DNA from: a virus | Lineage: Duplodnaviria > Caudoviricetes | IMG/VR virus record: IMGVR_UViG_3300035659_000016 | Coordinates: 1 to 55,282 of that record | Length of the DNA stretch: 55,282 nucleotides | Reading direction: 5' to 3' (one strand) | Part shown: positions 17,146 through 55,282 of the stretch, piece by piece | Layout of the letters: each line of letters starts with the position of its first letter | Position numbering within the stretch: the first letter of the stretch is position 1 | Made by a program: the position numbers and the translations under genes | Notes under the pieces: model-generated | What the model saw: the letters and a program-made list of their open reading frames with translations, nothing else | What the model was told of the DNA's origin: nothing | Databases searched by the model: none

Positions 17146-17359
17146 TGACGACTCCAACAAGCGTAGCCAGCAACACCATCCCCAAGACGGGAAGGGTGAT
17201 GGGCCAAAAGAACGATACGGCCCAGGCGCCTAACTGTCGAGGGCCTGTCGGCTCTTTGGGGGCTAGGAGCACATAAAGCCCCAGAACTCCTGTAGCGTAG
17301 TACAGACCAAATACCATATACAGCCCCACGATGGCCCAATTGGCATCAGCCATTAACAT
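17126..17359 (-). CDS. Small two-TM membrane protein
   Basis: Two hydrophobic stretches with FFWP; GGAG RBS. Confidence 0.55.
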   Translation of the reverse strand: MLMADANWAIVGLYMVFGLYYATGVLGLYVLLAPKEPTGPRQLGAWAVSFFWPITLPVLGMVLLATLVGVVNESQSP

Positions 17360-19797: not shown

Positions 19798-19809
19798 CTT
19801 CTATGCTCC

Positions 19810-20283: not shown

Positions 20284-20911
20284 TTTCCTTCTCCTTTCTG
20301 TGTGCGAGGAGTCTTGCCAACTCCGGTGGCGGTCTGCGTCTACGGCCCCCAATGTTGCTCATAAGGGGTGTAGGCTCGAAGTGGTACTGTGGTGGTTTGC
20401 CGTCTAGCAAGTTACAGTACTCTCTGACCCAATACTCCGAGGCCATCTGGTGCTCAGCGGTGACCAGATTGTGGTCGCGTGTCATAGTCGTCCCAGTGAG
20501 AATCGCACCCGCCCGCTCTAGCAGTTCACGCGAACGGATGAGGGGAAAGAAACTGACCTTCTTCCCTGCAGTAGCCAAGCGAATGGCTGGTACAGAGCAA
20601 CAGATGGCTGCGATCGGCTTGAGCACGCCGTCCGCTTCTACGACTAGACGCTGGACGTCCTTGTGGTACCACAGAGACTCGGTGTCTTTCATGTTCCCGG
20701 AAACGACCATTAGACCCTCGTAGTCCTGCATCCGCAGTGCGGAGCCCACGAGGGCGGCGACACGTACCTGATCACTCAGGTCTAGTTCATCGGCAATGAT
20801 CGGTTCAGTCGCTGCTACAACGAACGTGTGCCCGCGCTCAAGCAAGACATCCAAAGTCATCCACAGCTCGTGCCCGTTGAAGCGGCGGGCGCAGATGACT
20901 AGGACTTTCAT
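20267..20911 (-). CDS. DJ-1/PfpI family protein (class I glutamine amidotransferase-like fold)
   Basis: MKVLVI....F...EL, DYEGLMVVSG, KPIAAICC, GKKVS.F, LERAGA, DHNLVTA. Confidence 0.85.
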   Translation of the reverse strand: MKVLVICARRFNGHELWMTLDVLLERGHTFVVAATEPIIADELDLSDQVRVAALVGSALRMQDYEGLMVVSGNMKDTESLWYHKDVQRLVVEADGVLKPIAAICCSVPAIRLATAGKKVSFFPLIRSRELLERAGAILTGTTMTRDHNLVTAEHQMASEYWVREYCNLLDGKPPQYHFEPTPLMSNIGGRRRRPPPELARLLAHRKEKENVARK

Positions 20912-21315
20912 CGCGTGAACCCAGCCTTTTGTGCACGATGTCGCTTCACGGTCGTTGCTGACATCTCTGGGACTTCCCCCTCCACAGGGGGCAGAGGTGC
21001 GTCCTCGACCTTGGCTAGGCGGTCGATGTTCAGCTTGGCTGCCTTGGCTGGGGTCTTCGGGTCGGCATCCGTGCGTAGTAGGTAGAGCTGACCACCACGC
21101 GAGAAGAGTTTGACTGGCAAGCCGTGTGAGCGAATGTACGCCGATACCGACGACGTCAGACTCACCAGACTCTGTTGCATGCCGGTGCGATCGATCAGGA
21201 CCAACACGTACCCAGACTCAAGGAACTCCTTAAGAATGGGGTAACTCACACGTCCACGATGGCCCGCGACCAAATCAGGAATCGATGCGGGATCCACCGG
21301 TTTGAGCAATACCAT
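20908..21315 (-). CDS. Hypothetical protein inside the que cluster
   Basis: AGGAGGT RBS before ATG 21315; stop overlaps DJ-1 start. Confidence 0.65.
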   Translation of the reverse strand: MVLLKPVDPASIPDLVAGHRGRVSYPILKEFLESGYVLVLIDRTGMQQSLVSLTSSVSAYIRSHGLPVKLFSRGGQLYLLRTDADPKTPAKAAKLNIDRLAKVEDAPLPPVEGEVPEMSATTVKRHRAQKAGFTR

Positions 21316-21365
21316 TTTCCTTACCTCCTGTTGTTGTGGTACTGTGAGAGCACACACAACAAAAC

Positions 21366-22088
21366 CTAATTTTCGACGCCTGGGAGTCGGGGTTGGTTGG
21401 TCCCCTGAACCCACAAGGCGTCGCCGTTATAAACTGTGGGATCGGCCACCTTGGCCAACTCGAACGCTTCGTGACGCTCCACACAGGTACCACAGCGACC
21501 GCAGTGTGTCGAGCCACCTTTGTAACAACTCCACGTCAACTCGAAGGGAACATGCAAAGCGGCCCCCGCCTTTACAATAGCCGCCTTGGTGTCACGAATG
21601 AACGGAGTGCTGATGCGCACGGGTGGGTCAACCATACCCAGGTTGCCGAGTTGGAACGCATGCTCTAGGGTGTCCATGAAGTCAGGACGGCAGTCGGGAT
21701 AGATGGGATGGTCCCCTGCATGCACACCCACGAAGACGACCTCCGCCTTCTCAGCCACCGCCACGGCATACGCGATACTGAGAAAGACCGCATTGCGGTT
21801 CGGCACCACTGTGATGCGCATCGACGCATCGCGATAGTCGCCTTCAGGTACATCTATCGTGCGGTCTGTCAAGGCCGAACCGCCTAATAGAGCCGCGAGC
21901 GACTTGAGATCGACGACGTTGAGGGGGCACTCCAAGGCATTGCAAATCTGCCCTGCAGAACGAAGTTCACGATGGTGCCGCTGCCCGTAGTTGAAGGCCA
22001 GGGCGTGTACTCTATACCCCGCTTTCAAGGCGTAGTAGAGTGTCACGGTGGAGTCGATGCCTCCACTAGTGAGTACGATCGCTTTCAT
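21366..22088 (-). CDS. queC: 7-cyano-7-deazaguanine (preQ0) synthase
   Basis: SGGIDS PP-loop, NYGQRH, VPNRN, YPDCR, TWSCY...CGRCGTC. Confidence 0.97.
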   Translation of the reverse strand: MKAIVLTSGGIDSTVTLYYALKAGYRVHALAFNYGQRHHRELRSAGQICNALECPLNVVDLKSLAALLGGSALTDRTIDVPEGDYRDASMRITVVPNRNAVFLSIAYAVAVAEKAEVVFVGVHAGDHPIYPDCRPDFMDTLEHAFQLGNLGMVDPPVRISTPFIRDTKAAIVKAGAALHVPFELTWSCYKGGSTHCGRCGTCVERHEAFELAKVADPTVYNGDALWVQGTNQPRLPGVEN

Positions 22089-24600
22089 TTTTACCTCCAG
22101 TGCCTGCGTTGGAGATGACAATTTCAGTGGCGAGTGGCAGCTTGTCGGGCAAGTCTAAATCCGCTCGGCGCGCTTCTTCCAACGAGACTTTATACATCCA
22201 ATAAGTCGCCCCTTTGAGAGTGACCGCTGTGCGACACAGTATGTACTGCCCCACCTGGGGCTTCCTCGGATCGATCAGGCGCTCTTGTAACTGTGCCTTG
22301 AGTGCGGGTAGTTCCAACGCGTCGCGACCGGCACGACGTCGCTCCGTGGCCCACCACGTGTAGGCCGAAGAGATCTGAAAACCCATCGCCGCTTCCCTTG
22401 GAAACCACGCCGCCACATAACGAGGATGGTCGTTGGTAGCCATGTCGTTCACCAACGCTTCGATGAACTCGTCAGCCAACAATGAAGTGCGCCCCGACTT
22501 TTCGACGACATTGAACAATGTTTCCTCAAAGAGACTACGCACGTACTCTGGCGTCAGAAGGGGCTGCCGCAGCCCCAAGCTTTCCAACCACAGTGCTAGG
22601 TGAATCAGCCCATGCACCCCAATAGCCAAGTTCTGTCGCACACGGTCCGGCATGGGCTGGTTCGCGAAAGCGTCTTGAATCGATCGGAGGGCCTCGGTCC
22701 ACTTCAAGGGCGCCTGAAGCGTATACTGGATGTAGGCCGCCGCGATGCGGTTGATCCCCAGGGTATCGATTTGGCGATGTGCTTTCTCGGCTGGTGTACC
22801 TAGGTCGATGGTCTCGGGCATTAGCCGTACTTGCAAGACGCGCTCCTTGAGCGCCGGGTCTACTAACGCATCTTCGCCGTCGACGATCAACGGTGAAGTC
22901 AAGGGATACTCTTGTGTCGTCTGATCCGCTCTACCTCTAGCATCCCGGCCACTATCGTACGCTAGTAACAAATAACGTAGCAGGCGTGGGGTGCTATGCA
23001 ACCGAAACTCACTCAGTGAAACCGGCAAAGCGTTCGTCGCACCTAGCAAGGTCAGTAGGACGAAATTGGTTGTGCCACTGTCGTACGAACGCCCATCGAC
23101 AACCCCCAGTAGGGGCAGCAGCACACGAGTGATCGTAACTGTCTTACCACTACCTCTCGTGCCGAAGATGTTGAGAAGCGGGTAGCGCACATTCAGGTCC
23201 CACAACAGCGGCTTGAAGGGAGCTGAGAAAAGCCAGCCCAGTACGGGGCCCATCACCTCTGGACGATTCAGTTGCCATAGAAGTGGGAACAGTTGTCGTG
23301 CTAAGGCTTTCACTACGGTGGGCTCCACGGTGGCGTAGTGTGTGTGTGGTGCTTCGCGTTGCGCACTCATGTAGTGCACAGGACGTGCGTCGCCTTCGGT
23401 AATCTCCGCGGCTGAAAGGACCTGATCGGTACCCACCCAGTAGTTCTCGAAGCGCCCCAACACACGAGTGGCCTGGATCTTGGGCAACCCTTTGGCTAGG
23501 AGTTGTTGCATTAGGTATGGCAGCAGTGCCCGCAACTGGCGGTCACTGCCTAACCACTGTGCTGCGGCCTGTGGCATCTGGCGGTTGAGATCGCTCACGG
23601 AATTGAAAGCAATCTTGGTAAGCACCTGGCTGGGCCACACAAACCCACTCGCATGCAAAACCCCTAGGAGCGCGTCCACTGCATGTGCGTCGGTGTGCTC
23701 GATAAGGGCCTGCGGCTCAAACGTGAAAGTACTAACTGGTACCTTGTCACCCCGTAGCAAAACAAAGTATTGGTCGTTCTCCATAACGAAGGGCCCTGCT
23801 ACGCACGCGGCTCCGCCCCCAGCAGTCTTGGCTGCTCGTGCTGTCGCGCGCTTCAGTGTATGCTCCCAGTAGTTGCCCCCTTCCCGCATCTTGTTACCAC
23901 ACGGTGCAACAGCGAAGACCTGGGTAGTAGTGTCTACAGAAACCCCAGCGCTCAGCATTGCAGTCACAACGGCCCAATCGCGTTCCGAGCGACTGCGGTG
24001 CCCCGAGTTACCCGATGTGTTCACGGCGTGATGGATCTCCACCGGAATCGCCAGGGCAGCTTGCAAATCGCCCCACGTATAGCGGTTGTCTTCGGCGGTC
24101 ACCAGGTTGCACGGTTTGGGATGTTGGGGGTCTTTGAAGTTTGTCGTCCCTGGCACTCTTAGGATACGTGCAACATCGTGAACCTTTGTGTCGCCACCTA
24201 GCAAGGTTGCGGCTTGCGTCATCCAACCTTCTGCCGCCTCGAAGTCATCGGGGCCCAAGGCCTCTGTCAACAACCAATAGTAGTGATACCCGTTACCGGA
24301 GTCCACGACCAGCGATGGCGGCAACGCAAAAGGGGGAGGCTCACGTGTAGCGTCGACATCTATCCACAGAGACAGCAGACGGCTAACGTTGCGTTTGCTC
24401 CCACCCCCCTTGGCACCCCTTGGTGCCACACCGACGTAGAGGTGCCCTGTGCCCAGAGTAGCTGTCGCCGCTGTCGCTTCGGAAGGGGAATGCACGAAGT
24501 GTGCCTTCATCGTCTTCGAGGCCGGATTGGGTTGATGTCTGAGCTCAATCCTCTCCTTCGCCTTGATCCCTGCAAATAGTAACGAAAAAAAGTCTTCCAC
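22066..24600 (-). CDS. Primase-helicase: RepB-like AEP primase plus DUF927-like P-loop domain
   Basis: WIDVD, DSGNGYHYYW, ARILRVPGT.N.K, SRSERD; Walker A GTRGSGKT. Confidence 0.85.
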   Translation of the reverse strand: MEDFFSLLFAGIKAKERIELRHQPNPASKTMKAHFVHSPSEATAATATLGTGHLYVGVAPRGAKGGGSKRNVSRLLSLWIDVDATREPPPFALPPSLVVDSGNGYHYYWLLTEALGPDDFEAAEGWMTQAATLLGGDTKVHDVARILRVPGTTNFKDPQHPKPCNLVTAEDNRYTWGDLQAALAIPVEIHHAVNTSGNSGHRSRSERDWAVVTAMLSAGVSVDTTTQVFAVAPCGNKMREGGNYWEHTLKRATARAAKTAGGGAACVAGPFVMENDQYFVLLRGDKVPVSTFTFEPQALIEHTDAHAVDALLGVLHASGFVWPSQVLTKIAFNSVSDLNRQMPQAAAQWLGSDRQLRALLPYLMQQLLAKGLPKIQATRVLGRFENYWVGTDQVLSAAEITEGDARPVHYMSAQREAPHTHYATVEPTVVKALARQLFPLLWQLNRPEVMGPVLGWLFSAPFKPLLWDLNVRYPLLNIFGTRGSGKTVTITRVLLPLLGVVDGRSYDSGTTNFVLLTLLGATNALPVSLSEFRLHSTPRLLRYLLLAYDSGRDARGRADQTTQEYPLTSPLIVDGEDALVDPALKERVLQVRLMPETIDLGTPAEKAHRQIDTLGINRIAAAYIQYTLQAPLKWTEALRSIQDAFANQPMPDRVRQNLAIGVHGLIHLALWLESLGLRQPLLTPEYVRSLFEETLFNVVEKSGRTSLLADEFIEALVNDMATNDHPRYVAAWFPREAAMGFQISSAYTWWATERRRAGRDALELPALKAQLQERLIDPRKPQVGQYILCRTAVTLKGATYWMYKVSLEEARRADLDLPDKLPLATEIVISNAGTGGKNESDRTH

Positions 24601-29493: not shown

Positions 29494-29784
<291 letters not shown>

Positions 29785-30909: not shown

Positions 30910-32319
30910 CTAACCTCCTTCCACTGTAGCAAGGGCCCAGGCAAACTTTGCCCGGAGCGCTTTGCTGTAAATCTTCAACCAAGACCCTGTTGGGTCCCAG
31001 TCGACGAACACACGGGGGTCAATGTAGGACTTCAGCGACGTGCCGAGATTGTAGTCTTGTGCGGCGACTAGGAACTCTTTCTCGCGGCTGGGTTGCTTCT
31101 TGGCGAGCCGCTCTTCCCAGTTCTTGGGCAGTGTGCGACGATGATTCAACCGCTGCGCTGCGGCTAAGTTGGCGTACTTCGCTGTTAGCACAGTGTCGCC
31201 TTTCAGGTCCCGCCCTTGAGTAGGTCCGCTACATCCCTTCAAGAACTCGCGGGCCGCTGCCGTGCCGTGCATCGTGCGGAATGTCTTGGCTGTCAACCCC
31301 CCCATCTGTGCTTTCAGGAAGCGGTTGATGTCCTGAGCACTCACGTGTGGGAACAATGGCTCGTCGCCCTGAGCCGAGTCGAGTCGCGTGACGATCGCGT
31401 TGAAGATCGCTCGCGGTGGAATGAACGTCACTTCGAGCCTCACACTGTCCTTGCCCAAGAAGTCCAACGACACCTCTTGGCTGTCGAGTTCGTAACTCAC
31501 GTGCTCGCATCGCAATGTGCAAACGCCTACTGTGTCGGCTGCGTCCTCGCCCTTCTCGTCGCCGACGCGCAGGGCGAGATTGTCAAGCAAGTACATCGCG
31601 GTGCGAAACTCCGGAGAGTATAGGCCCGACGCATACAACTCGCGAATACGCTCGATGTCCCTTGTGAGTGCGAGTGCCTTGTCGTACTTGGCTTTGTCCT
31701 TGCTTTGGCGTGGCGCTGCGGTCTCGGCGACCCACAGGTACTTGCGACCGTGCTGACCGAGTGGTTTGGGCCAACTAGCAATCCAGTACTGGTCACGCAT
31801 CTCGACGATGTGACGCCACTTCCCCAGTGGGATCGGTGCCTTGGCGTCCAAGTTGAGTGTGACGTCTTCTGCCGTGATGCGATCTTTCCAACGACCACGC
31901 AACGGGTGGTCGCCACGACCGATGAAGATGCCCGGCGGCTCGATGCCGTACTGACAGGGTGTCTTGACCCCATCAATTGTAGCAAAACCAAAGTTGGCCT
32001 TGGTTGCCTGCTGTCGCATCTTGCGGAGCTTGCGTTCTTCGGGCGACAGCTCCTTCAACGTTGGCGGCAACTTAATGACTAGGTCGAACGGCCAGTCACG
32101 TAGCTCACGGTCGCTCGCCTTCGACATCATGTTGAGGTCGTGTACGAAGTTGGTCTTGAAGACCTTGTCCTTGCGGCGTTCTTCGGGCTGGCGCCACCAA
32201 GCGACGAGCATCTCTTCCGCTAGGGGCGACAACCACGACTGGCCCGTAGCCTTGAACGGCTCTGGAAAGACGACGCCGTTGTGTCGGAATGTCTTCCATG
32301 GCTGTGTCATTTGTCTCAC
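30910..32319 (-). CDS. top1: Type IB DNA topoisomerase, large eukaryote/Thaumarchaeota-like form
   Basis: WKTFRHNGVVFP, EPPGIFIGRGDHP, KYDKA..L, ALRVGDEK...ADTVG.CTLR.EH, LDFLGKDS, GLTAKTFRT, NHRR, NLGTSLKSYIDPR, KFAWA. Confidence 0.95.
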   Translation of the reverse strand: MRQMTQPWKTFRHNGVVFPEPFKATGQSWLSPLAEEMLVAWWRQPEERRKDKVFKTNFVHDLNMMSKASDRELRDWPFDLVIKLPPTLKELSPEERKLRKMRQQATKANFGFATIDGVKTPCQYGIEPPGIFIGRGDHPLRGRWKDRITAEDVTLNLDAKAPIPLGKWRHIVEMRDQYWIASWPKPLGQHGRKYLWVAETAAPRQSKDKAKYDKALALTRDIERIRELYASGLYSPEFRTAMYLLDNLALRVGDEKGEDAADTVGVCTLRCEHVSYELDSQEVSLDFLGKDSVRLEVTFIPPRAIFNAIVTRLDSAQGDEPLFPHVSAQDINRFLKAQMGGLTAKTFRTMHGTAAAREFLKGCSGPTQGRDLKGDTVLTAKYANLAAAQRLNHRRTLPKNWEERLAKKQPSREKEFLVAAQDYNLGTSLKSYIDPRVFVDWDPTGSWLKIYSKALRAKFAWALATVEGG

Positions 32320-33554: not shown

Positions 33555-33962
33555 TCACGCTGCGGGCTCGGGTAGGAGCTCGACGAAACCGCTGGCGTCG
33601 CTTGGCTCGGTCGTGACGACCACGGCCCCCTGGACGAATCCTTTGTCTTCCAGATCGGGCGTAGCAACCGGCACCTTGGGCTGGCGCGGCTTGCGGGTCT
33701 TGCGCTGCTTCGGTGCGTTGCCGGGCGAGTCGATGTTCGCCGTGACAGCGCCGTAGGTCGGTGCCTGCGCCTTGCGTGCGTCGCGGGTCGTCTTGTACTC
33801 CGTGAGGGACGCGACCGAAATCATTGTCCGGTTGTCCTCTTTCACGGTGTCCAAGCGGCGCTCCCAGAGCAACTTGCGGACTCTGTGGACGGAGACGCCC
33901 AGGAAGTCTTGTGCTTCCTTAACCGACATGTAGCTCTTCGCGGCTGACAGTTTCTTCGACAT
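33555..33962 (-). CDS. HTH_17 DNA-binding protein, paralog A (normal composition)
   Basis: YMSVKEAQDFLGVSVHRVRKLLWERRLD; AAGGAGG RBS. Confidence 0.85.
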   Translation of the reverse strand: MSKKLSAAKSYMSVKEAQDFLGVSVHRVRKLLWERRLDTVKEDNRTMISVASLTEYKTTRDARKAQAPTYGAVTANIDSPGNAPKQRKTRKPRQPKVPVATPDLEDKGFVQGAVVVTTEPSDASGFVELLPEPAA

Positions 33963-34128
33963 TTTGGCCTCCTTAGCCTATTCGCTCCTCACGCCCAAGC
34001 GACGGGCCTGGGTGCGAGTGAGACTCTTTGTTAAGCTGCGGCTGACAGTCACCCTGCCTTGCCTTACTGGCACTGGCACTGGCAGGGTCTGGTTCGTTAT
34101 CCGCTATAGGATGCTATGTTGCTATGCC

Positions 34129-34371
34129 CTAGGCTTCCACGAGCGTAATGGTAATGCCGTCTGGGACTTCGTAGACTCTGGACACCGGGTTGTCATTCAG
34201 GTCTGTGACGTAACGAATCGAGGTGGCGGGGTAGCCCATAGCCTCGGCCACCAACCGCGCCGCGCCTCGCGGTGTCGCACTACGAAAGCGAAAGGTGTGT
34301 GGCTTGCTTGGGTCGGTTGGTCGTGGCCACTGTTCCTCTACGACCGCTGTGTAGACTTCTGTCTTTGGCAT
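34129..34371 (-). CDS. Small hypothetical early protein
   Basis: AAGGAGGTG RBS. Confidence 0.6.
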   Translation of the reverse strand: MPKTEVYTAVVEEQWPRPTDPSKPHTFRFRSATPRGAARLVAEAMGYPATSIRYVTDLNDNPVSRVYEVPDGITITLVEA

Positions 34372-34443
34372 GTGTCTCACCTCCTTTCTTTGTTCTGTCT
34401 GGGCTGACAGTCCAGGCGTCGGCACTCGGCGCCTGCTGGTTCG

Positions 34444-34671
34444 TTATCCCAGTCTTGCAATGGCAATGTCTCGCGCCTCCACAACGTCGTGTCGCTTGCT
34501 GTAGGCGACCAAGAAAATGCCGAGATACTTGTAGGTGGCCGCCATGAAGTGCTTGGCCATCCACGCGGCGACGTCGTCGGCTGTCTTGCAGTCTGCGTAC
34601 TCTTTAGCTGCAACGGCTAGGCCGGTCGCGATCTTGTCTTTGGCTTCCTCTGACAGTGGCACTTGTCTCAC
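34444..34671 (-). CDS. Small helical hypothetical early protein
   Basis: AAGGAGGTG RBS; downstream of promoter 34733. Confidence 0.6.
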   Translation of the reverse strand: MRQVPLSEEAKDKIATGLAVAAKEYADCKTADDVAAWMAKHFMAATYKYLGIFLVAYSKRHDVVEARDIAIARLG

Positions 34672-34732
34672 CTCCTTTCATGCCCAGATTGTTGTGTGTC
34701 TCTATAGGCAATGGTTGTCTTTCTTCAATTTT

Positions 34733-34762
34733 ATTATACTACAGGACAGGTGTCGTTTGCAC
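34733..34762 (-). promoter_or_regulatory. Class-1 promoter GTGCAA-N18-TATAAT
   Basis: Spacer acgacacctgtcctgtag. Confidence 0.75.
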
Positions 34763-34846
34763 TACGACACACCTTAAATTTTTTGTTCAGTTGTCGGCTG
34801 GCAGTCAGGGCGCCGTTGGCATGGCGCCCCCTGGTTCGTGATCCGA

Positions 34847-35077
34847 CTACACTTTGATGTCTGCTGCGGCCGCTTTGCTGTCTGTCTCGGCGCAATCTAC
34901 GATGTCCTGATGTGACATCGGTGTCCTTTCTGGCACCTTGATGTCGTAGGTCGCGTCTTCTAGACACGCTTGTGCATCCGTGTCGTCTTCAAAAATGGTC
35001 TTGCAGAGCCATTCGTGAAGCGTTTCTGGCGTGACGTCGCCGTCTACCACGAACTTGACGTTGTAGGCTCGAGCCAT
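34847..35077 (-). CDS. Small acidic early protein
   Basis: AAGGAG RBS; Asp/Glu-rich. Confidence 0.6.
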   Translation of the reverse strand: MARAYNVKFVVDGDVTPETLHEWLCKTIFEDDTDAQACLEDATYDIKVPERTPMSHQDIVDCAETDSKAAAADIKV

Positions 35078-35111
35078 GTTTCTCCTTTCGTTGTTCGTTG
35101 TTCGCTGGTCG

Positions 35112-35393
35112 CTAGGTTTTTGTGTCTTGCCACTTTCGAATCTTGATCATTGTCCAATTCGGTCGTAGGAGCGGGTCGCCTAGTGAAACTAAGCTGGCGT
35201 GTCCGGTCGGCGGTTGTGTGTCCCATGCAATGTCGCCTGTCGGTGGCCACGGTTTGCTAATTGCGATACCGTTGGCTAGAAACGCTTGCCTGGCTTCTGG
35301 CGAATCTTCAATGTAGACACCCGCTTGTTTCGCCCACAACCACTTTCGTGTCTGGCGAACTGCCTTGTTCAGACTGGTGTTTGTTTGTGACAC
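35112..35393 (-). CDS. Small hypothetical early protein
   Basis: AAGGAGG RBS; first gene after promoter 35432. Confidence 0.6.
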   Translation of the reverse strand: MSQTNTSLNKAVRQTRKWLWAKQAGVYIEDSPEARQAFLANGIAISKPWPPTGDIAWDTQPPTGHASLVSLGDPLLRPNWTMIKIRKWQDTKT

Positions 35394-35431
35394 TGTGTCC
35401 TCCTTAGAAGGATTGTTAAGGTTCTAATTAT

Positions 35432-35461
35432 ATTATATTACAGGACACCGGTCGTTTGCAA
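35432..35461 (-). promoter_or_regulatory. Class-1 promoter TTGCAA-N18-TATAAT
   Basis: Spacer acgaccggtgtcctgtaa. Confidence 0.75.
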
Positions 35462-35504
35462 GGGGTCGCAGTGTGCCAATTTTGTTGTCGAGTGGCGCGC
35501 TTGG

Positions 35505-35872
35505 CGATTCTAAAATTAGGTTTGGTTTGGCTAGCCTAGCAAACGGTCAATTCGTTTTTGGATTCGGAAATTCGAAAATTCTGTGCTCGACATTGAACCA
35601 TGTGGGCTACCCTCTGCTGACACCTTGTCATGGGGGAGCACAAAAAGTGATCCAAAGGTGACCCAAAAAACCTAATTTTCGAATCGCAAAACGCAAAAAC
35701 GAATCCTCCGTCCACTCGCGAAATCTCGTTGTTTTTCAAGCTGGAATCGCTGTGGGTCCATGGAAGAATTAGAAAATTAGAAAAAATGTTTTGGATAGAT
35801 TACTTATTTAGTTCTTTCTAGCAAAGATGATTTATCGCTCTCTATTCGATTCTGAAGCTAATTTTCGAATCG
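35505..35872. repeat. CTAATTTTCGAATCG boxes, left cluster (35672, 35858; inverted 1-mismatch copy at 35505)
   Basis: Direct reading; same box at 37860 and 37913. Confidence 0.85.
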
Positions 35873-36381
35873 CGTCGATTTTTCGTGTTCAGGAGCACTG
35901 TTTTTGTGTTCAGGGGCGATACCCTAGATGGTCTTCGTCGCATCCGAACAAGCCTCGTTGTCACAGAATCTAGTACTACCACGACACGAAGGCTGACCGG
36001 ACACCCAGCGGTGCGTCGCATGTAGCTGCAGGGTCGTGGCCGGAGGAAACCCCACGGCGACTCCCCCTGTGCCTCCACCGCGGGGCTGGGCCAGACTGGA
36101 CAGGCTGATGTAGCAGCATGTCGGGTCACGGAAGGACGTAGCGGCTAGGGCGTGTCCAGATTCGACGTAGCGGCATGTCCGGACGTAACAACGTGGCACG
36201 TAGCGACCCTGGCGTGTCCAGATGGGACACAGGACGTACTGGGCAGGGCCAGACACGCCAGGGGAGATTGCGGGGGCGAGGCGGGACACGACTACTCATA
36301 GGCAGGTGGGGCCTCGGACTCTTTCTTCAGAGGAGACGCCAGCGTGTCGTGGCGCGCTGGCGCTCCTGTCTCCTGTCGCGA

Positions 36382-36708
36382 CTAGGCTACTTTGTCGTAG
36401 TCTTCGATGAACCAGTCTCCGATGTCGACATTGTGTCTCTTCGCGAACTTTTGAATCGCTCCGAGATACGCTTCGATGTTTGTCGGCGCCTGCACCTTGT
36501 CGTACATAGCGTGCAGTTCGACGAAGACTTCGTTCCGCTTCTTTGTCGGATCATCGGTGTTATGTGTCGGCAGTGTGATGTGTATTGCTTCGGTGAATTG
36601 TCCGCTCGAGAACGACCCGTAGGCGTTGCCTAACTTGAATGCGTCGGCTGTCGATAGGTGTTTCATGTCTCGCTTAACCTCCTTGTAGACTTGTTGTGTT
36701 GTCTTCAA
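36382..36708 (-). CDS. Hypothetical early protein (start probably ATG ~36666)
   Basis: AAGGAGGT RBS before MKHL; follows promoter 36713. Confidence 0.6.
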   Translation of the reverse strand: MKTTQQVYKEVKRDMKHLSTADAFKLGNAYGSFSSGQFTEAIHITLPTHNTDDPTKKRNEVFVELHAMYDKVQAPTNIEAYLGAIQKFAKRHNVDIGDWFIEDYDKVA

Positions 36709-36712
36709 TTAT

Positions 36713-36742
36713 ATTATATTACAGAACACCTGTCGTTTGCAA
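36713..36742 (-). promoter_or_regulatory. Class-1 promoter TTGCAA-N18-TATAAT
   Basis: Spacer acgacaggtgttctgtaa. Confidence 0.75.
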
Positions 36743-37012
36743 GGGGTCCTTCCCCGCCAATTTTTGGCACGTAGCGACCGTGTCGTAGCGGGACACGACG
36801 TAGTGGCACGTAGCGACTGGGTCGGGGTCGAACACGACGCAGCGGCATGTCGGCGCAGCGGCATGTCGAGACAGGACACATTGCGTCGGGGGCAGGGCCA
36901 GATTCGATGTAGCGACTGTGGCACGTAGCGACCGTGTCTTATCCAGACAGGACAAGGGGACCCCCCAATACGAACAGTACTTGTTGTTCAATACGAACAG
37001 TACTTGTTAGTC

Positions 37013-37045
37013 AAAAAAAAACTTGACAACGTTGTTGTCAAGTTT
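37013..37045 (-). terminator. Intrinsic terminator closing the island transcript
   Basis: 12-bp stem aaacttgacaac/gttgtcaagttt ending in a run of 9 T on the - strand. Confidence 0.85.
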
Positions 37046-37056
37046 CTTTTAGTGTG

Positions 37057-37134
37057 TTAGAAGATTCTCACACAACTGAAGAATACAGTAAACACACTAA
37101 ACACGAACAAGATCGCTAACACCAACTCTTTCAT
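37057..37134 (-). CDS. 25-aa hydrophobic peptide MKELVLAILFVFSVFTVFFSCVRIF
   Basis: Purine-rich leader, TM-like, lies between two hairpins; not in the ORF track. Confidence 0.6.
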   Translation of the reverse strand: MKELVLAILFVFSVFTVFFSCVRIF

Positions 37135-37198
37135 TTTCTTCACTCTTTCTTGTAAAGTAGTTGATGTCTTTCGACATCAACTACTTCACAAACGTTTG

Positions 37199-37453
37199 TC
37201 AACTTTCTTGAACTTCTAGTTGTGAAGATTCGTTCACAACTTCCTCAAGTTTGTTGCTTGTGTGGTAGGTAGGAGACTTGACCATTCGGTTGTCTCTTAC
37301 CTTCTTGTACTTTGTGAGAGATTCGATCGTAATCATTGTACGACCATCGACCTTTTGTGAGTCAAGTTTCCTCTCCCACAAAAGTTTACGAACTCGATGA
37401 ACCGAAACTCCCAAAAACACCATACTCTCTTTCACATTCAAAAACTTCTTCAT
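37199..37453 (-). CDS. HTH_17 DNA-binding protein, paralog B (alanine-free)
   Basis: FLNVKESMVFLGVSVHRVRKLLWERKLD; AAGGAG RBS; no Ala in 84 aa. Confidence 0.85.
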   Translation of the reverse strand: MKKFLNVKESMVFLGVSVHRVRKLLWERKLDSQKVDGRTMITIESLTKYKKVRDNRMVKSPTYHTSNKLEEVVNESSQLEVQES

Positions 37454-37556
37454 CTCGAACTCCTTTTTGAACTTTTTGATGAAACGAGTTTGAATGAGAC
37501 CAAGTTGGTCTCATTCATTCAATTTCATATTTGTTAAAGTTCAATTCTACAAACTC

Positions 37557-37585
37557 ATCATACAACAAGTTCAATAAAAAGTCAA
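37557..37585 (-). promoter_or_regulatory. Near-consensus sigma70 promoter TTGACT-N17-TATGAT
   Basis: Direct reading; drives paralog B. Confidence 0.85.
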
Positions 37586-37848
37586 CACATATTCACATAT
37601 TCGTTGATGTCTATATGTTTGTTATATTTCAAACTAACACTAATTGTTTGTGTTGGTGAATACTAATTGTTAGTCGGTACTAACATAATGAGACTAGGTT
37701 AGTCTCGTTTAACGTTTGATGTTAGTACATACTAATTGTTAGTATGTACTAACAATTTTGAATAGTCCACCCTACCCCTCAAAAAAGGCACGATCAGGTT
37801 CCACGGACGCTACGCTACTTTTCCACCCGATAGGGTCCCCTCGATACG

Positions 37849-37927
37849 CGAATCCGAACCTAATTTTCGAATCGAAATCAACCTGCTGGTTGCTGGCCAC
37901 ACGAATCCGAACCTAATTTTCGAATCG
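37849..37927. repeat. Two perfect 26-bp direct repeats CGAATCCGAACCTAATTTTCGAATCG, 53-bp period
   Basis: 37849-37874 and 37902-37927, just upstream of the terS promoter. Confidence 0.9.
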
Positions 37928-37936
37928 CCCCGACTC

Positions 37937-37966
37937 TTGCAAGGGCTCCCCGAAGGGTTGTATAAT
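37937..37966 (+). promoter_or_regulatory. Late-operon promoter TTGCAA-N18-TATAAT
   Basis: ttgcaagggctccccgaagggttgtataat upstream of terS. Confidence 0.7.
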
Positions 37967-38003
37967 GAGGTAGACTTAGCGGATGTAATCAAGGACACAC
38001 ACA

Positions 38004-38735
38004 ATGCGATCCAAACCAATAACCACAGCGGGTCGCCCACGCGACCAAGACCTAGAGGTACTCGACCCCGAACTCGAAGACGACGCTGTGCGAGAGGATG
38101 TCGCCGCGATGCCCGTAGCAGTCAATGGCCCGGCGCCCGCGACGACGTTGGCGGCAGTATTTCCCGTCGAGACCCTAACCGGTCGACATCAGCAAGGCAA
38201 GCCCCGCTCCGGAGCCAAGAACTTTCGCCATACCAAGTTCCAGCGTAAGATGGGGCGTGCCGAGCGACTTAAGAACGTCGCCGCCTGGTTGCACGCTGGG
38301 CTGACCCAAACCGAGATGGCAGAGCGTGCGGGTGTTAGTCAACCCATGATTAGCCTAGACCTAATACTCCTAGGCAAAAAGTTTCACGAACAGGCCGGAC
38401 AAAGCACGAGTGAATGGGTGGGCCGCGAGCTAGCCTACGCACTCGAACGCCGCGCCGAACACCTCGGGGTAGCACAAAAGGGTGCCGACCTCAACACAAT
38501 GAAGCACTACACTCTGGTCTTGAAGTGGACCGAGCGGGTCGCCATGTTGCTGGGCTTGGACGCGCCGAGCAAAGTCGACAACTGGACCGATAAGGACTGG
38601 AAGAAGTTCCTAGAAGAGAATGGACTAGAGGAAGCCGATGCTATCCGAGAGGCAGAGCTCATTATCAACTCAGCAAAAAGCGGGCCTGCTTTACTTGCAG
38701 CAGGTCCTGGCTCCGAAGCTACGCGAGTCGCTTGA
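38004..38735 (+). CDS. terS: Terminase small subunit (HTH)
   Basis: GLTQTEMAERAGVSQPMISLDL HTH; ERVAMLLGLDAP; precedes terL. Confidence 0.8.
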   Translation: MRSKPITTAGRPRDQDLEVLDPELEDDAVREDVAAMPVAVNGPAPATTLAAVFPVETLTGRHQQGKPRSGAKNFRHTKFQRKMGRAERLKNVAAWLHAGLTQTEMAERAGVSQPMISLDLILLGKKFHEQAGQSTSEWVGRELAYALERRAEHLGVAQKGADLNTMKHYTLVLKWTERVAMLLGLDAPSKVDNWTDKDWKKFLEENGLEEADAIREAELIINSAKSGPALLAAGPGSEATRVA

Positions 38736-40185
38736 CGGTCATAGTCGTAGCAAGTACGAGTTCCGCGGAGTCGCCTTCACCCTCCAGACCGCGCAGGACC
38801 GCGAAATCGTTCTTACAGGGGCCACGCGCACTGGCAAGTCTCTAGCCGCCCTTTACAAATTGCATCGCTGTGCACTCAAGTATCCAGGATTCAGAGGACT
38901 GATTATCCGTAAGACGCGCGAGTCGCTGAACGAGTCCGGCCTCCTGACGTTCGAGCGAGACGTACTTGGTAGTCGGTCCTCTCTCCTGAGCGGAGCGCGG
39001 CGCGCCAGTCGCCATTCGTACATCTACCCCAACGGGGCGGAGATTGTTGTTGGTGGGCTGGTAGCCAATGGTCGTGACCAGATAGCCAAGATCATGTCTA
39101 CGGAATACGACATGATCTTCGCACAAGAGTGCACCGAGCTAGCCGAGACCGAGTGGCAACAGTTGCTGACACGGCTGTCCAACTACAGGATGCCCTACCA
39201 GCAGATCATTGGTGACTGCAACCCGAACGTACCCACGCACTGGGTGCGACGGCGCTCCTTGAGCAAGCGCCTCCTGTTGTGGGAGATGTTCTTCCACGAC
39301 AACCCGCGCTGGTGGGTCATTGACGAGTTGGACCTCAGTGGTGAGGGCGGGCACTGGACAACTGAGGGCATGGCACTGATGGCCAACCTCAAGACCCTTA
39401 CTGGCCTATCACGTCAGCGACTAGTATTGGCACAGTGGGTGCAAGCAGAGGGCGCCATCTTCAACGAGGTCTGGGACGAGTCACGCGGTAGCATTAGCGA
39501 AGGCGCCCTCTTCGAAAAGGACGCCGGGGAGATCTATTGGGCCGCAGATGACGGGTACTCAGCGGGTTCGGCAGCCCTAACCGGTGGCCGCGACGCGGAG
39601 ACAGGATACTACGCCGCCGATGCGCATCCGCGCGTCTTCCTAGTCTGCCAGCTCAAGCCAGACGGTCACATCGACGTCCTGTGCGAAAGCTATGCGTGTC
39701 TGAAACTCACCGACGACCACATCGCCGAAGTCCTAGCGCTGCCGAAGACGTTGGAGGATGTGCAGACCCGGCTTCAGTCCAGCCCGCTACATGGTGACAA
39801 ATGGCTCGAAGCCAATCCCAACAAGGTGACGCAGGTGCGTGAGGTGCGGGACATGCACCCGGATTGGTTCTACGACGAGCCGACCATTGTCTCCTTTGGG
39901 CCCGGCAGCGCAGAGTTCAGGGGACGCCTTTACGCCGCGCAGCTGGTACCGCACCAATGTACCGAACGCGTGGACACATCACTACAAGAACTTCGGAGTT
40001 GGCTGTCCGCGGATGCCAACACCTTCCGGCGGATTAGAGTAAATCCGTCGTGTGTGAACTTACGAATGCAAATGGTAGAGTACTCTACCGACGAGGCCAC
40101 CCAAAAGCCACGCAAGGCGTTTGACGACGGGCCAGACGCCCTTCGTGGTCTGGTTTGGGTACTCAGAGGAATGGTTAATGCCTAA
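38638..40185 (+). CDS. terL: Terminase large subunit
   Basis: Walker A GATRTGKS, IIRKT..SL, Walker B MIFAQE, DCNP, DNP, nuclease WAADDG and DDGPDALR. Confidence 0.9.
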   Translation: MLSERQSSLSTQQKAGLLYLQQVLAPKLRESLDGHSRSKYEFRGVAFTLQTAQDREIVLTGATRTGKSLAALYKLHRCALKYPGFRGLIIRKTRESLNESGLLTFERDVLGSRSSLLSGARRASRHSYIYPNGAEIVVGGLVANGRDQIAKIMSTEYDMIFAQECTELAETEWQQLLTRLSNYRMPYQQIIGDCNPNVPTHWVRRRSLSKRLLLWEMFFHDNPRWWVIDELDLSGEGGHWTTEGMALMANLKTLTGLSRQRLVLAQWVQAEGAIFNEVWDESRGSISEGALFEKDAGEIYWAADDGYSAGSAALTGGRDAETGYYAADAHPRVFLVCQLKPDGHIDVLCESYACLKLTDDHIAEVLALPKTLEDVQTRLQSSPLHGDKWLEANPNKVTQVREVRDMHPDWFYDEPTIVSFGPGSAEFRGRLYAAQLVPHQCTERVDTSLQELRSWLSADANTFRRIRVNPSCVNLRMQMVEYSTDEATQKPRKAFDDGPDALRGLVWVLRGMVNA

Positions 40186-49068: not shown

Positions 49069-49706
49069 CCATACTACCAGTGAAAGGACGTGTGCGCGAG
49101 ACCGTCGAGCTGATCCCTCGCTTGCTCCGTACCGCAGGGGCCCCGATGAATCTGGTCGTAGTAGTCAATGACGACCCCGAGCTGGCAGCAGCCTTGCAAA
49201 ATCCGGTGCCAGTTGGGTTCCGGTTGGCCATCAATCAGGCCAACCACACTTATTGGGACACGCTGCGTCAGACCTTGCGGGCCATACCTGAAGGAGACCT
49301 CATCGTCAACCTAGCCAATGATCTACTACCAGGACGCAGTTGGTTGGAACGGGCCCTGGCAGCCTACACCAGGACCTTCGGTAAAGGCGAAGGTATCATC
49401 GGCTTCAACGATGGAGTGCATTCCGGGGAGACCGCTGCACACTTTGTGGCACATCGTGACCTGCTAAAGCAGTTCTACGGTAACGACTATTTCCCACAAC
49501 ACTACCAACACAATTTCGGTGACACCGAACTGATTCTACGGGCCCAAGCCCAGCAGAAGTTCGGGGTGGCGATTTTCGCGATTCTGTATCACAACCACCC
49601 CGCTACAGGCAGACAGCCTACAGACTACGTCTACCAAACGGGCTTTGCTTCGTGGCGGCAGGACCAAGAGACCTTCGTACAGCGTAAGGCGGCGGGGTGG
49701 CCCTAG
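49056..49706 (+). CDS. GT-A fold (GT2-like) glycosyltransferase
   Basis: AILPVKGR, VVVVNDD, NLANDL, Y.HNFGDTEL, HNHP. Confidence 0.75.
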   Translation: METLAILPVKGRVRETVELIPRLLRTAGAPMNLVVVVNDDPELAAALQNPVPVGFRLAINQANHTYWDTLRQTLRAIPEGDLIVNLANDLLPGRSWLERALAAYTRTFGKGEGIIGFNDGVHSGETAAHFVAHRDLLKQFYGNDYFPQHYQHNFGDTELILRAQAQQKFGVAIFAILYHNHPATGRQPTDYVYQTGFASWRQDQETFVQRKAAGWP

Positions 49707-50011
49707 TGCTAGTCCTAACACTCGAAGTGCGACTGATCTTGGCCGCGCTCGCAACCTATCGCGTCTCACACGCCCTGGCACTAGAGAAGGGTCCCTTCGC
49801 GGTCTGCGAGCGCTTGCGGGGGTGGGTCTCTGACCACTTCGGTGCGGCGAGTTGGGTCTTCGAAGGCCTAACTTGCCCCCTGTGCCTTTCCGTGTGGGTG
49901 GTCTGGCCCTTCATCGTGGTGGTGGTGTTTCCCACACCCGTGGGCGACCTGGGACTGATGTGGTTAGGACTAAGCGGCGTAGCATCGTTTCTGTACAAAG
50001 TTGAGAGGTAA
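49697..50011 (+). CDS. DUF1360-like membrane protein
   Basis: LATYRVS......GPF...R, LTCPLCLSVW. Confidence 0.75.
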   Translation: MALVLVLTLEVRLILAALATYRVSHALALEKGPFAVCERLRGWVSDHFGAASWVFEGLTCPLCLSVWVVWPFIVVVVFPTPVGDLGLMWLGLSGVASFLYKVER

Positions 50012-50012
50012 C

Positions 50013-50324
50013 ATGGCGACATTTCCAACGAGTCCTGGGGCTGGCGCTGCAATTCCGGCTGTGTTAGCTTCCCCCGACCAAGTGCAAGGAAACCATGCCT
50101 TCCCGGCGTATCTCCTAGTGGGGCCTTGGGATGACGGGCGGCCGGATCAAGGGATGCCACCGACACACGTGTGGCCGATCAACATGTGGGACTTGGTCGA
50201 GTTCGGGGGCAAGTACTCGCTCGTAGGAGAGGTTATGGCTCTGCCCATCCGCCCGTCCTACGCCCCGATAGTGACAGGAGACAAGGCCATAGCGATTCTT
50301 ATCGTGAACCTCGGAGGCAACTAA
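50013..50324 (+). CDS. Hypothetical virion-region protein
   Basis: GAGG RBS, tiles the operon. Confidence 0.55.
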   Translation: MATFPTSPGAGAAIPAVLASPDQVQGNHAFPAYLLVGPWDDGRPDQGMPPTHVWPINMWDLVEFGGKYSLVGEVMALPIRPSYAPIVTGDKAIAILIVNLGGN

Positions 50325-50602
50325 TGCTACTGCTCTGGGCTGCACTTGGTTGGACCTTCGTCGTGCTCGTTCTCTCGCAGGTCCTGGTTCTGGCGATGGT
50401 AATCATCGTGTGGAGGTTTGAAATGAATCTGTACGAGAAAATCGGCGCTGTGCTAAAAGCAGCAGCAGCTCGCGAAGCACAGCTAACCGCCCTGCAGCAG
50501 CAGTTCGCGGGACTGAACTACGCACTCAACAAGTTGGTTGAGGGGCTCGCCGCCATCTACGGAGTGTCTCTCGAGTCCCTAGGGCAAAAGAAGGTCAAGT
50601 GA
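50324..50602 (+). CDS. Small coiled-coil protein (alternative start 50423 has a GGAGG RBS)
   Basis: TM segment then coiled coil. Confidence 0.5.
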   Translation: MLLLWAALGWTFVVLVLSQVLVLAMVIIVWRFEMNLYEKIGAVLKAAAAREAQLTALQQQFAGLNYALNKLVEGLAAIYGVSLESLGQKKVK

Positions 50603-54085: not shown

Positions 54086-54284
54086 CGTCTTCCGCTGGAA
54101 AGTAGCGCAGTCCGGAGTCACTTATAGTACGGCATATCTCTGGTTCGAGGCGGCTCGCCATGCCGGCTATCGTTGGACCGACTTCCTCGATCTAGATGGG
54201 GAAGTCCAGAGCCTCCTTGTGGCGGCTTTCCAAACAGACAATCAGATTCAGGGTGTACTAGCGCGATATGGCAGAAAATCTTAG
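54060..54284 (+). CDS. Start-less +1-frame extension of the tail chaperone (gpT-like)
   Basis: 74 sense codons FAAKYQRRDVFRWK...YLWFEAARHAGYRWTDFLDLD...; begins at TTT-CGC. Confidence 0.65.
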   Translation, partial: FAAKYQRRDVFRWKVAQSGVTYSTAYLWFEAARHAGYRWTDFLDLDGEVQSLLVAAFQTDNQIQGVLARYGRKS

Positions 54285-55282
54285 ACAAGTTGGCGTTCAG
54301 CTCGTCGCTCTGGGTGGCAGTGAGTACGTTGCCGCCCTGAATGCGGCTGCGCAGGCTGAGGCGCAACTCACAGCCTCCCTGGTCCCACTGGCCAACAGCG
54401 AGAAGGCACTTTCGACGGCTCTCGTGCCGATTGTGTCTTCCCTCCAAGAGGCCACGAAGGGTTACCAGGACACTGCGAGGGCCGTCAACGCGGACGAGGT
54501 AGCCGAAGCCTCGAAGATCCAGATCGCTCTACAGCAACTGGCTGTCTTCCAGCAACTCAATGCAGAGTTCAACCAGACGAACGTCACTGTCACCTCGAAT
54601 ACCGATGTCCTGAACATTAACACCAAGGCCGCGGCCGCGGCCTCCCAACACACTGGCTCCTTCGTCGCTGCAGTGCGAGGTATGCGCTTCGCCTTGATGG
54701 AGGGTATCGCGGTCCTGGCTATGTACCAGATAGCCATCGGTGAGACGCTGCCCCAGGCTGCACGCGAAGCCAGCCGCGCCATGATGATCGTAGGTGACTC
54801 GATCATGGCCGCAGCGATGGTTAGTGCCACCGCCGCCTCCGTGGGGATCGGTGCCCTCGTCGGCGTCGTGTTAGCCCTTGGGGTAGCTTCGCTGACGGTT
54901 GACGAGGACCTATCTGCTCTGAACAAGCAGCTAGACTCTCTAGCCAAGCACGACGCTGCTACGGAAGGGCTGAGGAACCTGGCCGCCGTCGAGGCTGACG
55001 TTGCCGCCAATGCCCTCGAGTGGATGAAGCTCCACCCAGAGCTGGCCGCAGAACTCCAAGACATGGAGAAGCTCAGCCAGAAGTCCATGTTCGCTGTCTC
55101 GGGGTTGGGTGATGCTCTGGGTTGGTTGGTTGGTAAAACGGGTGAGGTGGTGCGCGGCTGGCAAGCCATGGCCATTGCCGACCAGGCTTACCTCGAGGCT
55201 ATACGCGAGGGCAAGTCGCATCAAGAGGCCCAGAACATCGCGATTCAAGCTGGCCACGACGTGGTGATGGGCTACAGTCAGG
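54268..55282 (+). CDS. Tape measure protein, N-terminal part
   Basis: MAENLRQVGVQLVALG...; open to the window end and in frame with ORF 12-1880. Confidence 0.85.
   Translation, partial: MAENLRQVGVQLVALGGSEYVAALNAAAQAEAQLTASLVPLANSEKALSTALVPIVSSLQEATKGYQDTARAVNADEVAEASKIQIALQQLAVFQQLNAEFNQTNVTVTSNTDVLNINTKAAAAASQHTGSFVAAVRGMRFALMEGIAVLAMYQIAIGETLPQAAREASRAMMIVGDSIMAAAMVSATAASVGIGALVGVVLALGVASLTVDEDLSALNKQLDSLAKHDAATEGLRNLAAVEADVAANALEWMKLHPELAAELQDMEKLSQKSMFAVSGLGDALGWLVGKTGEVVRGWQAMAIADQAYLEAIREGKSHQEAQNIAIQAGHDVVMGYSQ
55076..55282. repeat. Terminal direct repeat (copy 2)
   Basis: Matches 1-207. Confidence 0.95.

Follow-up and report, generated by a model that had tools for sequence, protein, structure and literature searches.

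Why should a phage genome with a G+C content of 56% contain a short segment from which a single dinucleotide has been almost completely removed? The question is raised by the IMG/VR virus record IMGVR_UViG_3300035659_000016, a tailed phage (Caudoviricetes) whose entire record of 55,282 bp, hereafter called the window, was analyzed. At 36955-37787, where two divergent gene arms meet, there is an AT-rich island (36% G+C) that is depleted in GpC. The island carries a small cassette with a promoter, a gene for a helix-turn-helix (HTH) protein, an open reading frame (ORF) for a short hydrophobic peptide, and a terminator. The same genome encodes enzymes for the synthesis of 7-deazaguanine precursors. 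The explanation that we consider the best available, and that we hold tentatively, is that a control cassette at the arm junction is kept free of GpC by selection at the level of the DNA, most likely because it thereby escapes the guanine-swapping enzyme of the phage itself.

GpC depletion of the island

In the 858 bp from 36930 to 37787 (A261, C177, G130, T290), GpC was found only twice, at 37115 and 37256, whereas 26.8 occurrences are expected from the base composition (ratio 0.07, Poisson P = 9e-10). The reverse dinucleotide, CpG, is present 23 times versus 26.8 expected (ratio 0.86). An earlier note on this DNA, made from the letters alone, had counted both dinucleotides by hand, and its numbers are exact. 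It was also correct in describing GG and CC as moderately reduced, with 12 versus 19.7 expected (ratio 0.61) and 28 versus 36.5 expected (ratio 0.77), respectively. The note had allowed that the GpC ratio might fall within the range of shuffled sequences. It does not, since none of 20000 mononucleotide shuffles of the same segment contained two or fewer GpC and the minimum obtained was 12.

The edges of the depleted segment are as sharp as the note had stated, with the nearest flanking GpC at 36928 on the left and 37788 on the right. The three longest GpC-free runs of the window (532, 187, and 141 bp) are all found within the island, and the next longest is 114 bp. No GpC-free run exceeds 201 bp in 822,679 bases from 80 IMG/VR loci with genes for related large terminases. 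When the genome was divided into 600-bp windows, the ratio for the island was 0.11, and the rest of the genome had a mean of 1.00, a standard deviation of 0.12, and a minimum of 0.70 (z = -7.6 for the island). The low G+C content is not the cause of the depletion because the segment 35301-35901, with 41-45% G+C, still has GpC ratios of 0.89-1.09, as the note had argued.

The purge covers 0.83 kb, or 1.5% of the genome. It is local and acts at the level of a dinucleotide, unlike ordinary restriction-site avoidance, which is genome-wide and site-specific. Avoidance of the latter kind was considered for this phage and rejected: the lowest tetranucleotide ratios in the genome are only 0.70 for AGCT, 0.73 for TTAA, and 0.75 for CCGG, and no hexanucleotide lies beyond z = -2.0.

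A control cassette with a recoded regulator

The earlier note had described the island as a complete unit beside the promoter of the small terminase gene (terS), and all of its parts were located, each on the minus strand. A consensus scan identified a sigma70-type promoter, TTGACT-17-TATGAT, at 37557-37585 (10 of 12 matches); in the allele carried by L006, a contig from the JGI metagenomes, the -10 box is TATAAT. A hairpin in the 5'-untranslated region (UTR) was predicted at 37491-37517 (-17.5 kcal/mol, z = -6.6), and a Shine-Dalgarno sequence, AAGGAG, can be read at 37460-37465, 6 nt upstream of the ATG at 37453. The HTH_17-like protein of 84 aa is encoded at 37199-37453. Between its gene and the next ORF is a 20-bp hairpin with a GAAA loop at 37150-37191 (-29.1 kcal/mol, z = -9.4). 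The second ORF, taken from the ORF list at 37057-37143, specifies a small peptide, 28 aa long with a GTG start and 25 aa long if translation starts at the ATG at 37134, that has a hydrophobic core in its translation; one of the two remaining GpC of the island is located here, in an alanine codon. An intrinsic terminator at 37014-37050, with a 17-bp stem followed by U9 and no GpC, closes the unit (-16.7 kcal/mol, z = -4.9). The island contains four strong hairpins, and all of them are built without GpC. The GAAA-capped hairpin reported in the note is present, but its loop is not conserved: in the X2 allele, from one of the other sediment runs described below, the loop is inverted (37168-37172, five adjacent changes), which places the GAAA on the opposite strand. 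Such a change suggests a template switch and not a conserved RNA tetraloop. No Rfam family came near its gathering score in the island, and profile searches recognized no anti-restriction protein among the cassette products.

Upstream of the promoter, at 37633-37760, there are TGTTAGT/ACTAACA sites together with palindromes (I3, I7, and I10; -19.7 kcal/mol). Ten copies of the pentamer TTAGT/ACTAA fall within 37633-37754, and seven of the ten ACTAACA heptamers of the genome are in the island. As judged by its sequence pattern, this array is a probable operator for the HTH protein or an iteron array. Just beyond the terminator, at 36966-37011 on the plus strand, a pattern search located two direct repeats of 23 nt (families D10 and D6) along with a related AGTACTTGTTAGT site. 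We take the island to be a self-sufficient control cassette of the early type where the two arms meet, with a host-type promoter, a recoded HTH paralog, a membrane peptide, a terminator, and a predicted TGTTAGT binding-site array.

Is the transcript or the DNA the target of the constraint? mRNA interferases that recognize short motifs are known, and a transcript without GpC might resist an endoribonuclease toxin that cuts motifs containing this dinucleotide. The transcribed part of the island (537 bp) does contain only 2 GpC versus 17.2 expected. However, the untranscribed 261 bp are equally purged (0 versus 7.6 expected, P = 5e-4), and for this reason a cause at the level of the RNA is very improbable.

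The island HTH protein matches PF12728 (HTH_17) with 23.2 bits (E = 8.4e-5), which is below the cutoff of 27. A GC-rich paralog is located in the same genome at 33555-33962 on the minus strand; this resident protein of 135 aa matches PF12728 with 31.4 bits, above the cutoff, and the assignment of the island protein to HTH_17 rests on transitivity through it. The two proteins are identical at 39 of 62 residues (63% over the domain, E = 2e-29) and share the stretch GVSVHRVRKLLWER without change, from which it follows that they probably read the same DNA sites. At the nucleotide level the paralogs are 58% identical, and the resident copy has 60% G+C. In the aligned 186 nt, the resident gene contains 15 GpC and the island gene contains none. 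The five alanines in the aligned part of the resident protein are replaced in the island protein by S, E, N, V, and S, and there is no alanine in the entire 84 aa. Over the whole island gene there is 1 GpC versus 9.8 expected. The junctions between codons were also purged, since none of the 24 codons ending in G precedes a codon that starts with C. A homolog from another contig (P0002), 68% identical to the island protein, has a single alanine in its core.

A recent hypermutation of GpC to GpT or ApC was rejected as the origin of this pattern, since the fates of the 15 GpC of the paralog are scattered (GA in 5 cases; AG, GT, and AA in 2 each; TT, GG, CA, and TC in 1 each). Because GCN codons are the only codons for alanine, a GpC purge can be tolerated by a small protein but hardly by a whole proteome. 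The HTH family is very small. In a search of 1.84 billion representative sequences, there were 9 matches with E ≤ 0.001, the record itself included, and only 3 relatives with E ≤ 1e-9. The cluster P0123/P0130 that was returned by the protein search proved to be the 135-aa HTH gene of the phage itself.

Allelic variation suggests that the constraint is still acting. The strain data consist of assembled contigs from short-read runs (three other sediment runs) and the JGI contig L006, and the island was found in all of them as diverged alleles. The X2 contig is 99.5% identical to the window over 34000-37874, apart from a patch of 19 single-nucleotide polymorphisms (SNPs) at 37098-37328. In L006, 17 of 409 island positions differ and no GpC is found there; on the terS side, 129 of 968 positions differ. 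Among the 36 distinct SNPs of the island in the two other alleles, none creates a GpC, whereas 4.95 would be expected, given that 17% of the possible transitions and 9% of the possible transversions make one (P = 0.005). These SNPs are clustered and appear to be recombination-borne, and five adjacent ones stem from one inversion of the loop, which brings the effective number closer to 32. The 129 SNPs of the flank resulted in 26 gains and 28 losses of GpC. The alanine-free paralog, the purged untranscribed parts, and the 36 SNPs that never make GpC together argue for a local and ongoing constraint on the DNA, and selection at that level seems to keep the island free of GpC.

An import without any present constraint was also considered. 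Phage morons are autonomous promoter-gene-terminator units of foreign composition, and the cassette resembles them in having its own sigma70-type promoter, its own factor-independent terminator, an atypical G+C content, and sharp edges; it is also inserted between two repeat families that are adjacent to one another at 35497-36290. If the cassette had been acquired by horizontal transfer from an AT-rich relative, it could simply have retained the composition of the donor. The alleles do recombine, as is evident from the 19-SNP patch in an otherwise identical 3.9 kb, and the nearly CpG-free contig L041, which encodes a terminase of the same family, establishes that single-dinucleotide purges of whole genomes exist. 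However, a donor genome without GpC would require a proteome without alanine, and the cassette gene is a paralog of a resident regulator from a tiny family and not a foreign accessory gene. The cassette is carried by all three strain alleles seen (X2, X3, and L006), and no relative without it was found. The absence of GpC-creating SNPs indicates that the composition is actively maintained in this population. The earlier note had named an AT-rich donor that avoids GpC throughout its genome as an outcome unfavorable to its proposal, and such a donor is unlikely, since its alanine codons would vanish and the gene has its paralog in this phage. We therefore assign a low probability to the imported moron.

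A donor was sought among phages and in IMG/VR, the JGI metagenomes, and the GTDB genomes without success. A megablast search of 36000-39000 and a tblastn search with the HTH protein produced no matches among phages. Relatives were not found in IMG/VR by single-protein locus searches (TerL, HTH, and P0123) or by a search for the operator-pair DNA pattern, or by an HTH alignment search of IMG/VR and the GTDB genomes. The sole match in the JGI metagenomes was the near-identical strain contig L006. The closest other large terminase is 50% identical.

Guanine modification and the missing dinucleotide

The earlier note had described this phage as one that encodes guanine hypermodification. This is borne out for the synthesis of preQ0 but less so for the enzyme that would insert the modified base. 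The genes for FolE, QueE, QueD, a DJ-1/PfpI-like protein, an ORF of unknown function, and QueC are located at 18473-22121 on the minus strand, and their Pfam matches are as follows: FolE (PF01227, 1.8e-52), QueE (PF04055, 2.3e-07), QueD (PF01242, 2.2e-31), QueC (PF06508, 3.2e-67), and the DJ-1/PfpI-like protein (E = 4.1e-11). All four enzymes that mark the preQ0-synthesis part of a 7-deazaguanine DNA modification system (FolE, QueD, QueE, and QueC) are therefore present. A candidate for the DpdA-like guanine transglycosylase is encoded at 17353-18156 on the minus strand, with a weak match to TIGR00449 (E = 0.0017). A look-alike Atlas cluster carries PF23859 (DpdA) on 17% of its members, and the sequence FLDNGAW aligns with VFLDSGAF of the DpdA from Pseudomonas phage iggy (E = 0.03, a short motif). 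The candidate gene adjoins those for PolA and FolE, as does DpdA in JenP2, CAjan, and iggy. A tblastn search with the candidate returned one weak match to a hypothetical protein, and a search of the PDB sequences returned a chance match only. A phage-encoded C5-cytosine methyltransferase was considered as an alternative GpC enzyme and rejected, since PF00145 was unmatched.

In the proposed mechanism, as in that of the note, GpC would be the working context of an enzyme that acts on DNA, for which the 7-deazaguanine transglycosylase of the phage is the best candidate. Genome-wide, 8746 of 31223 guanines (28%) are in GpC steps. Approximately 28% of the guanines, those that precede C, would be swapped, and the 0.83 kb island would stay chemically ordinary DNA. 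The properties of the promoter, operator array, and first transcript would then not depend on modification of the surrounding genome. Because 7-deazaguanine alters the major groove and not the base pairing, it is not expected to stop transcript elongation. If GpC were the context, the 28% is within the range of guanine modification given for DpdA1 phages, 0.1-30%, in a preprint (bioRxiv 10.1101/2023.04.13.536721). The note had further proposed that the island is the segment that enters first and that it encodes a factor that opens the modified genome; nothing in our analysis supports either step, the second being considered here for the HTH protein.

Three reasons for such an island may be envisaged. 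The control region, with its promoter, its operator or iteron array, and perhaps an origin of replication or packaging site (ori/pac), could be recognized regardless of the state of modification. Alternatively, the DNA that is first exposed could be without a nuclease target, by analogy with the first-step-transfer region of phage T5. Finally, an early unit that resembles host DNA could be shut off along with host transcription.

The first of these reasons has a functional variant in which the island is itself an origin or a packaging site, so that recognition and unwinding are undisturbed by the base exchange. The TGTTAGT array, the palindromes, and the 25-32% G+C at 37500-37700 are compatible with such a role, as is a maximum of the cumulative GC skew at approximately 36.5 kb; a GA-poor stretch of CAjan is rich in iterons with a core of 17-27% G+C, and the corresponding island of iggy has ACCAGG repeats with an AT-rich core. 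However, the island does not code for an initiator-like protein, its coding sequence has been purged as well, and the skew signal is confounded by gene orientation and too weak to place an origin. An origin or packaging site is a rather unlikely function for this segment.

The second reason can also be stated without any part for the modification system. The island would be the DNA that is exposed first or for the longest time, and it would have been purged of the GpC core of a host nuclease because any cut made before protection acts is fatal. On this view, the deazaguanine system would have no relation to the purge, or would shield only the remaining DNA. According to a report on T5-like phages (PMC10644984), restriction and CRISPR defenses are effective only against sites in the segment that is transferred first, and the lack of such sites there decides the outcome of infection. 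The promoter of the island is directed inward, to the early arm. The island adjoins terS, where physical ends are often found, and in cultured actinophages the related TerL genes are 1-2 kb from the start of the record. The uniform purge of the promoter, UTR, coding sequence, hairpins, and operators is better explained if any site is harmful, or even lethal, than by interference with binding alone. On the other side, no bacterial nuclease that recognizes GpC alone is known to us, although no search aimed at one was made. The 23 CpG were kept, so there is no general avoidance of GC-rich sites, and the cassette has no recognizable anti-restriction protein. Repeats of 27 nt account for the contig breaks at 37874 and 37902. 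We consider leading-end nuclease avoidance unlikely, either with an unrelated deazaguanine system or with one that protects only the remainder of the genome.

The T5 region and the island are alike as short privileged segments that carry promoters of the host type and small genes of the early type. The T5 segment accounts for 8% of the genome, lies within a terminal repeat, and is devoid of certain 6-bp sites, whereas here 0.83 kb lacks a whole dinucleotide. In T5 a pre-early protein protects the rest of the genome; in this phage base modification probably does so. An island that is free of a dinucleotide or motif may be regarded as target avoidance in a privileged segment, and the cassette, which is moron-like in form, is possibly akin to the pre-early genes of a first-transfer region.

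The proposed escape from the phage's own enzyme leads to a wider expectation, namely that phages with DpdA-type guanine hypermodification keep an unmodified control island at the arm junction that is purged of the target dinucleotide of their own enzyme, and that GpC represents a new DpdA specificity. This generalization is possible but doubtful. It was examined, following the comparison suggested in the note, by scanning 13 other phage genomes that carry QueC for windows poor in a dinucleotide. In iggy (MN029011), the segment 59901-60628 contains 16 GA/TC versus 85.9 expected (ratio 0.19, P = 2.6e-20). No other dinucleotide class is so depleted in any 700-bp stretch of this genome, and the next-lowest window has a ratio of 0.43. 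This island of approximately 700 bp is a largely noncoding arm junction at the end of the record. The iggy study gives a strict GA motif for its DpdA, determined experimentally (PMC10484667). CAjan has 17 GA/TC versus 39.6 expected in 400 bp at 50001-50400 (ratio 0.33), a weaker and noncoding case. In Burkholderia phage BcepGomr (NC_009447), AC/GT is found 18 times versus 74.1 expected in 600 bp at approximately 49200-49900, at a divergent arm junction; within it there are four tiny ORFs and two promoter-like TTCTATAAT boxes. At the record end of VspDsh_1, GA/TC is borderline low (ratio 0.36). A GA/TC-poor window in Vid5 was rejected, since it is a coding region of low complexity that consists of CTG repeats and has a large inverted duplication. 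In a background of 807,926 bases (79 TerL-related loci, taken irrespective of dpdA), TA is the only class for which any 700-bp window is below 0.35. Among 600-bp windows, the other extremes have ratios of 0.40-0.56.

This phage resembles CAjan and iggy in having FolE, QueD, QueE, and QueC next to the DNA polymerase and in its two-armed layout, and it resembles iggy in having a junction island poor in what would be the motif of its own DpdA. It differs from both in that its transglycosylase candidate is too divergent to match the Pfam models for TGT or DpdA. The iggy island, unlike the one described here, is noncoding and not AT-rich. By analogy, the comparison across phages is suggestive, not conclusive, support for reading the missing dinucleotide as a modification context.

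Several observations weigh against that reading, in this phage and in the others. The published DpdA motifs are GA and GGC for CAjan and GA only for iggy, and enzymes with a G in a GC context in their sites still cut CAjan DNA, according to two reports (PMC7544227, PMC10484667). GA is not avoided in the island (GA 46 times and TC 69 times, or 115 GA on the two strands), and an enzyme of the GA type would therefore modify it heavily. The three other sigma70-type promoters of the phage have a GpC in their -35 box, TTGCAA. AGCT (0.70) and GCGC and GGCC (0.81) are mildly underrepresented throughout the genome, which one would not expect with protected guanines in GpC. A need for protein binding alone would not call for a purge of the coding part. 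The transglycosylase candidate has no match to PF01702 (TGT) or PF23859 (DpdA), a word-based homolog search with it retrieved only itself, and its AlphaFold model from the single sequence (pLDDT 41) was unusable. Among the 13 other genomes, nonrepetitive islands with a ratio below 0.3 were found in only 2 (iggy and BcepGomr), 2 are borderline (VspDsh_1 and CAjan), and no comparable island was found in 8 (JenP2, Sonali, Sour, DoCa3, Quinobequin-P09, MaInes, the Stenotrophomonas phage, and Dp-1). The z-scores of -4.6 for iggy and -4.1 for BcepGomr are no more extreme than those of milder dips for other dinucleotides in other genomes. The iggy genome as a whole is GA-poor (0.78), and its noncoding island may be just the place where this genome-wide pressure is unconstrained.

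Should the modification-context reading be correct, the missing dinucleotide would read out the specificity of the enzyme: GA for iggy, as has been proven, GpC for the phage described here, and GT as a prediction for BcepGomr. DpdA specificity would then be predictable from sequence. The alanine-free regulator would be made from, and would act on, ordinary DNA, and the island would be the first phage case of an unmodified window reserved in a hypermodified genome. It would also illustrate that a constraint on the DNA can be so strong that a protein loses its alanines. Direct tests are possible in two cultured phages, namely iggy, for which nanopore data are published, and BcepGomr with its predicted GT motif. 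Even if a host nuclease is the cause, a selected dinucleotide purge in 1.5% of a genome is apparently undescribed. Literature searches, which covered PMC10484667 and PMC7544227 without their supplements, turned up no account of an island lacking a dinucleotide or motif in the genome of a phage with modified DNA.

Genome-wide purges such as that of CpG are alike in that one self-complementary dinucleotide is nearly eliminated. They differ from the present case, where the purge is confined to 1.5% of the genome, concerns GpC, and costs all of the alanine codons. The contig L041 (14,753 bases of a 34,453-base IMG/VR contig, with 57% G+C) contains 27 CpG versus 1152 expected. TG (1.66) and CA (1.71) are in excess, TA, AC, and GT are depleted, and the 27 CpG are scattered with no island.

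Flanks of the island and genome surroundings

The island is wedged between arrays of GTAGCGAC-type repeats and units of the form CGAATCC...TTTTCGAATCG, two families that are found side by side at 35497-36290. The left flank, at 36764-36954, is a GC-rich GTAGCGAC-type array (families D1, D2, D5, and D9; also at 35980-36290). The right flank, at 37848-37930, contains two CGAATCCGAACCTAATTTTCGAATCG repeats (families D3 and D4; also at 35497-35900). The GTAGCGAC arrays differ in copy number between strains, as a 170-bp joint that steps back in X3 and X4 indicates an extra copy. A 38-bp skip was also observed in the arrays of X3 (variable stretches 36768-36937 and 36260-36299). The mosaic breakpoint of the strains, at 37875-37902, coincides with the 27-nt CGAATCC...CGAATCG repeats that account for the contig breaks mentioned above. 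To the left of it, the X2 contig has 99.5% identity to the window, and the side with terS and terL is approximately 10-13% divergent.

The two arms diverge from the island, with minus-strand genes on the left and plus-strand genes on the right. The right arm carries the terS promoter, TTGCAA-18-TATAAT, which was located by a consensus scan at 37937-37966 (+) and contains GpC. It is followed by a probable small terminase at 38004-38735 (+; weak HTH_3 match), the large terminase at 38638-40185 (+; Terminase_6N, phrog_979), and the virion and lysis genes. The left arm carries a gene for 108 aa at 36382-36708 with a TTGCAA-18-TATAAT promoter, many small genes, an SNF2 helicase, a PD-(D/E)XK exonuclease, a primase, the preQ0 genes, the candidate transglycosylase, and the DNA polymerase. 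A 42-nt repeat (95% identical) at 35426-35467 and 36707-36748 provides two leftward TTGCAA-18-TATAAT promoters with the same hexamers as the terS promoter.

The record is classified as linear and 83% complete, but it is probably a complete circular map. The ORFs at the two ends of the window (54268-55282 and 1-1880) join in frame to give 965 codons without a stop, and the contigs of 46,914 and 8,205 bp from the source run sum to about the length of the window. No integrase was found among the ORFs that were scanned, which are not all of those in the window. A third HTH protein, of the excisionase/MerR type and 96 aa in length, is encoded at 29494-29784 (-; phrog_66, 6e-8). The family-A DNA polymerase at 14767-17160 (-) has an N-terminal domain of the uracil-DNA-glycosylase superfamily. 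At 30910-32319 (-) there is a topoisomerase IB of 469 aa and of the eukaryote type, with matches to Topoisom_I_N, Topoisom_I, and Topo_C_assoc (E = 1e-32, 1e-48, and 2e-11, respectively), an enzyme that is unusual in a tailed phage.

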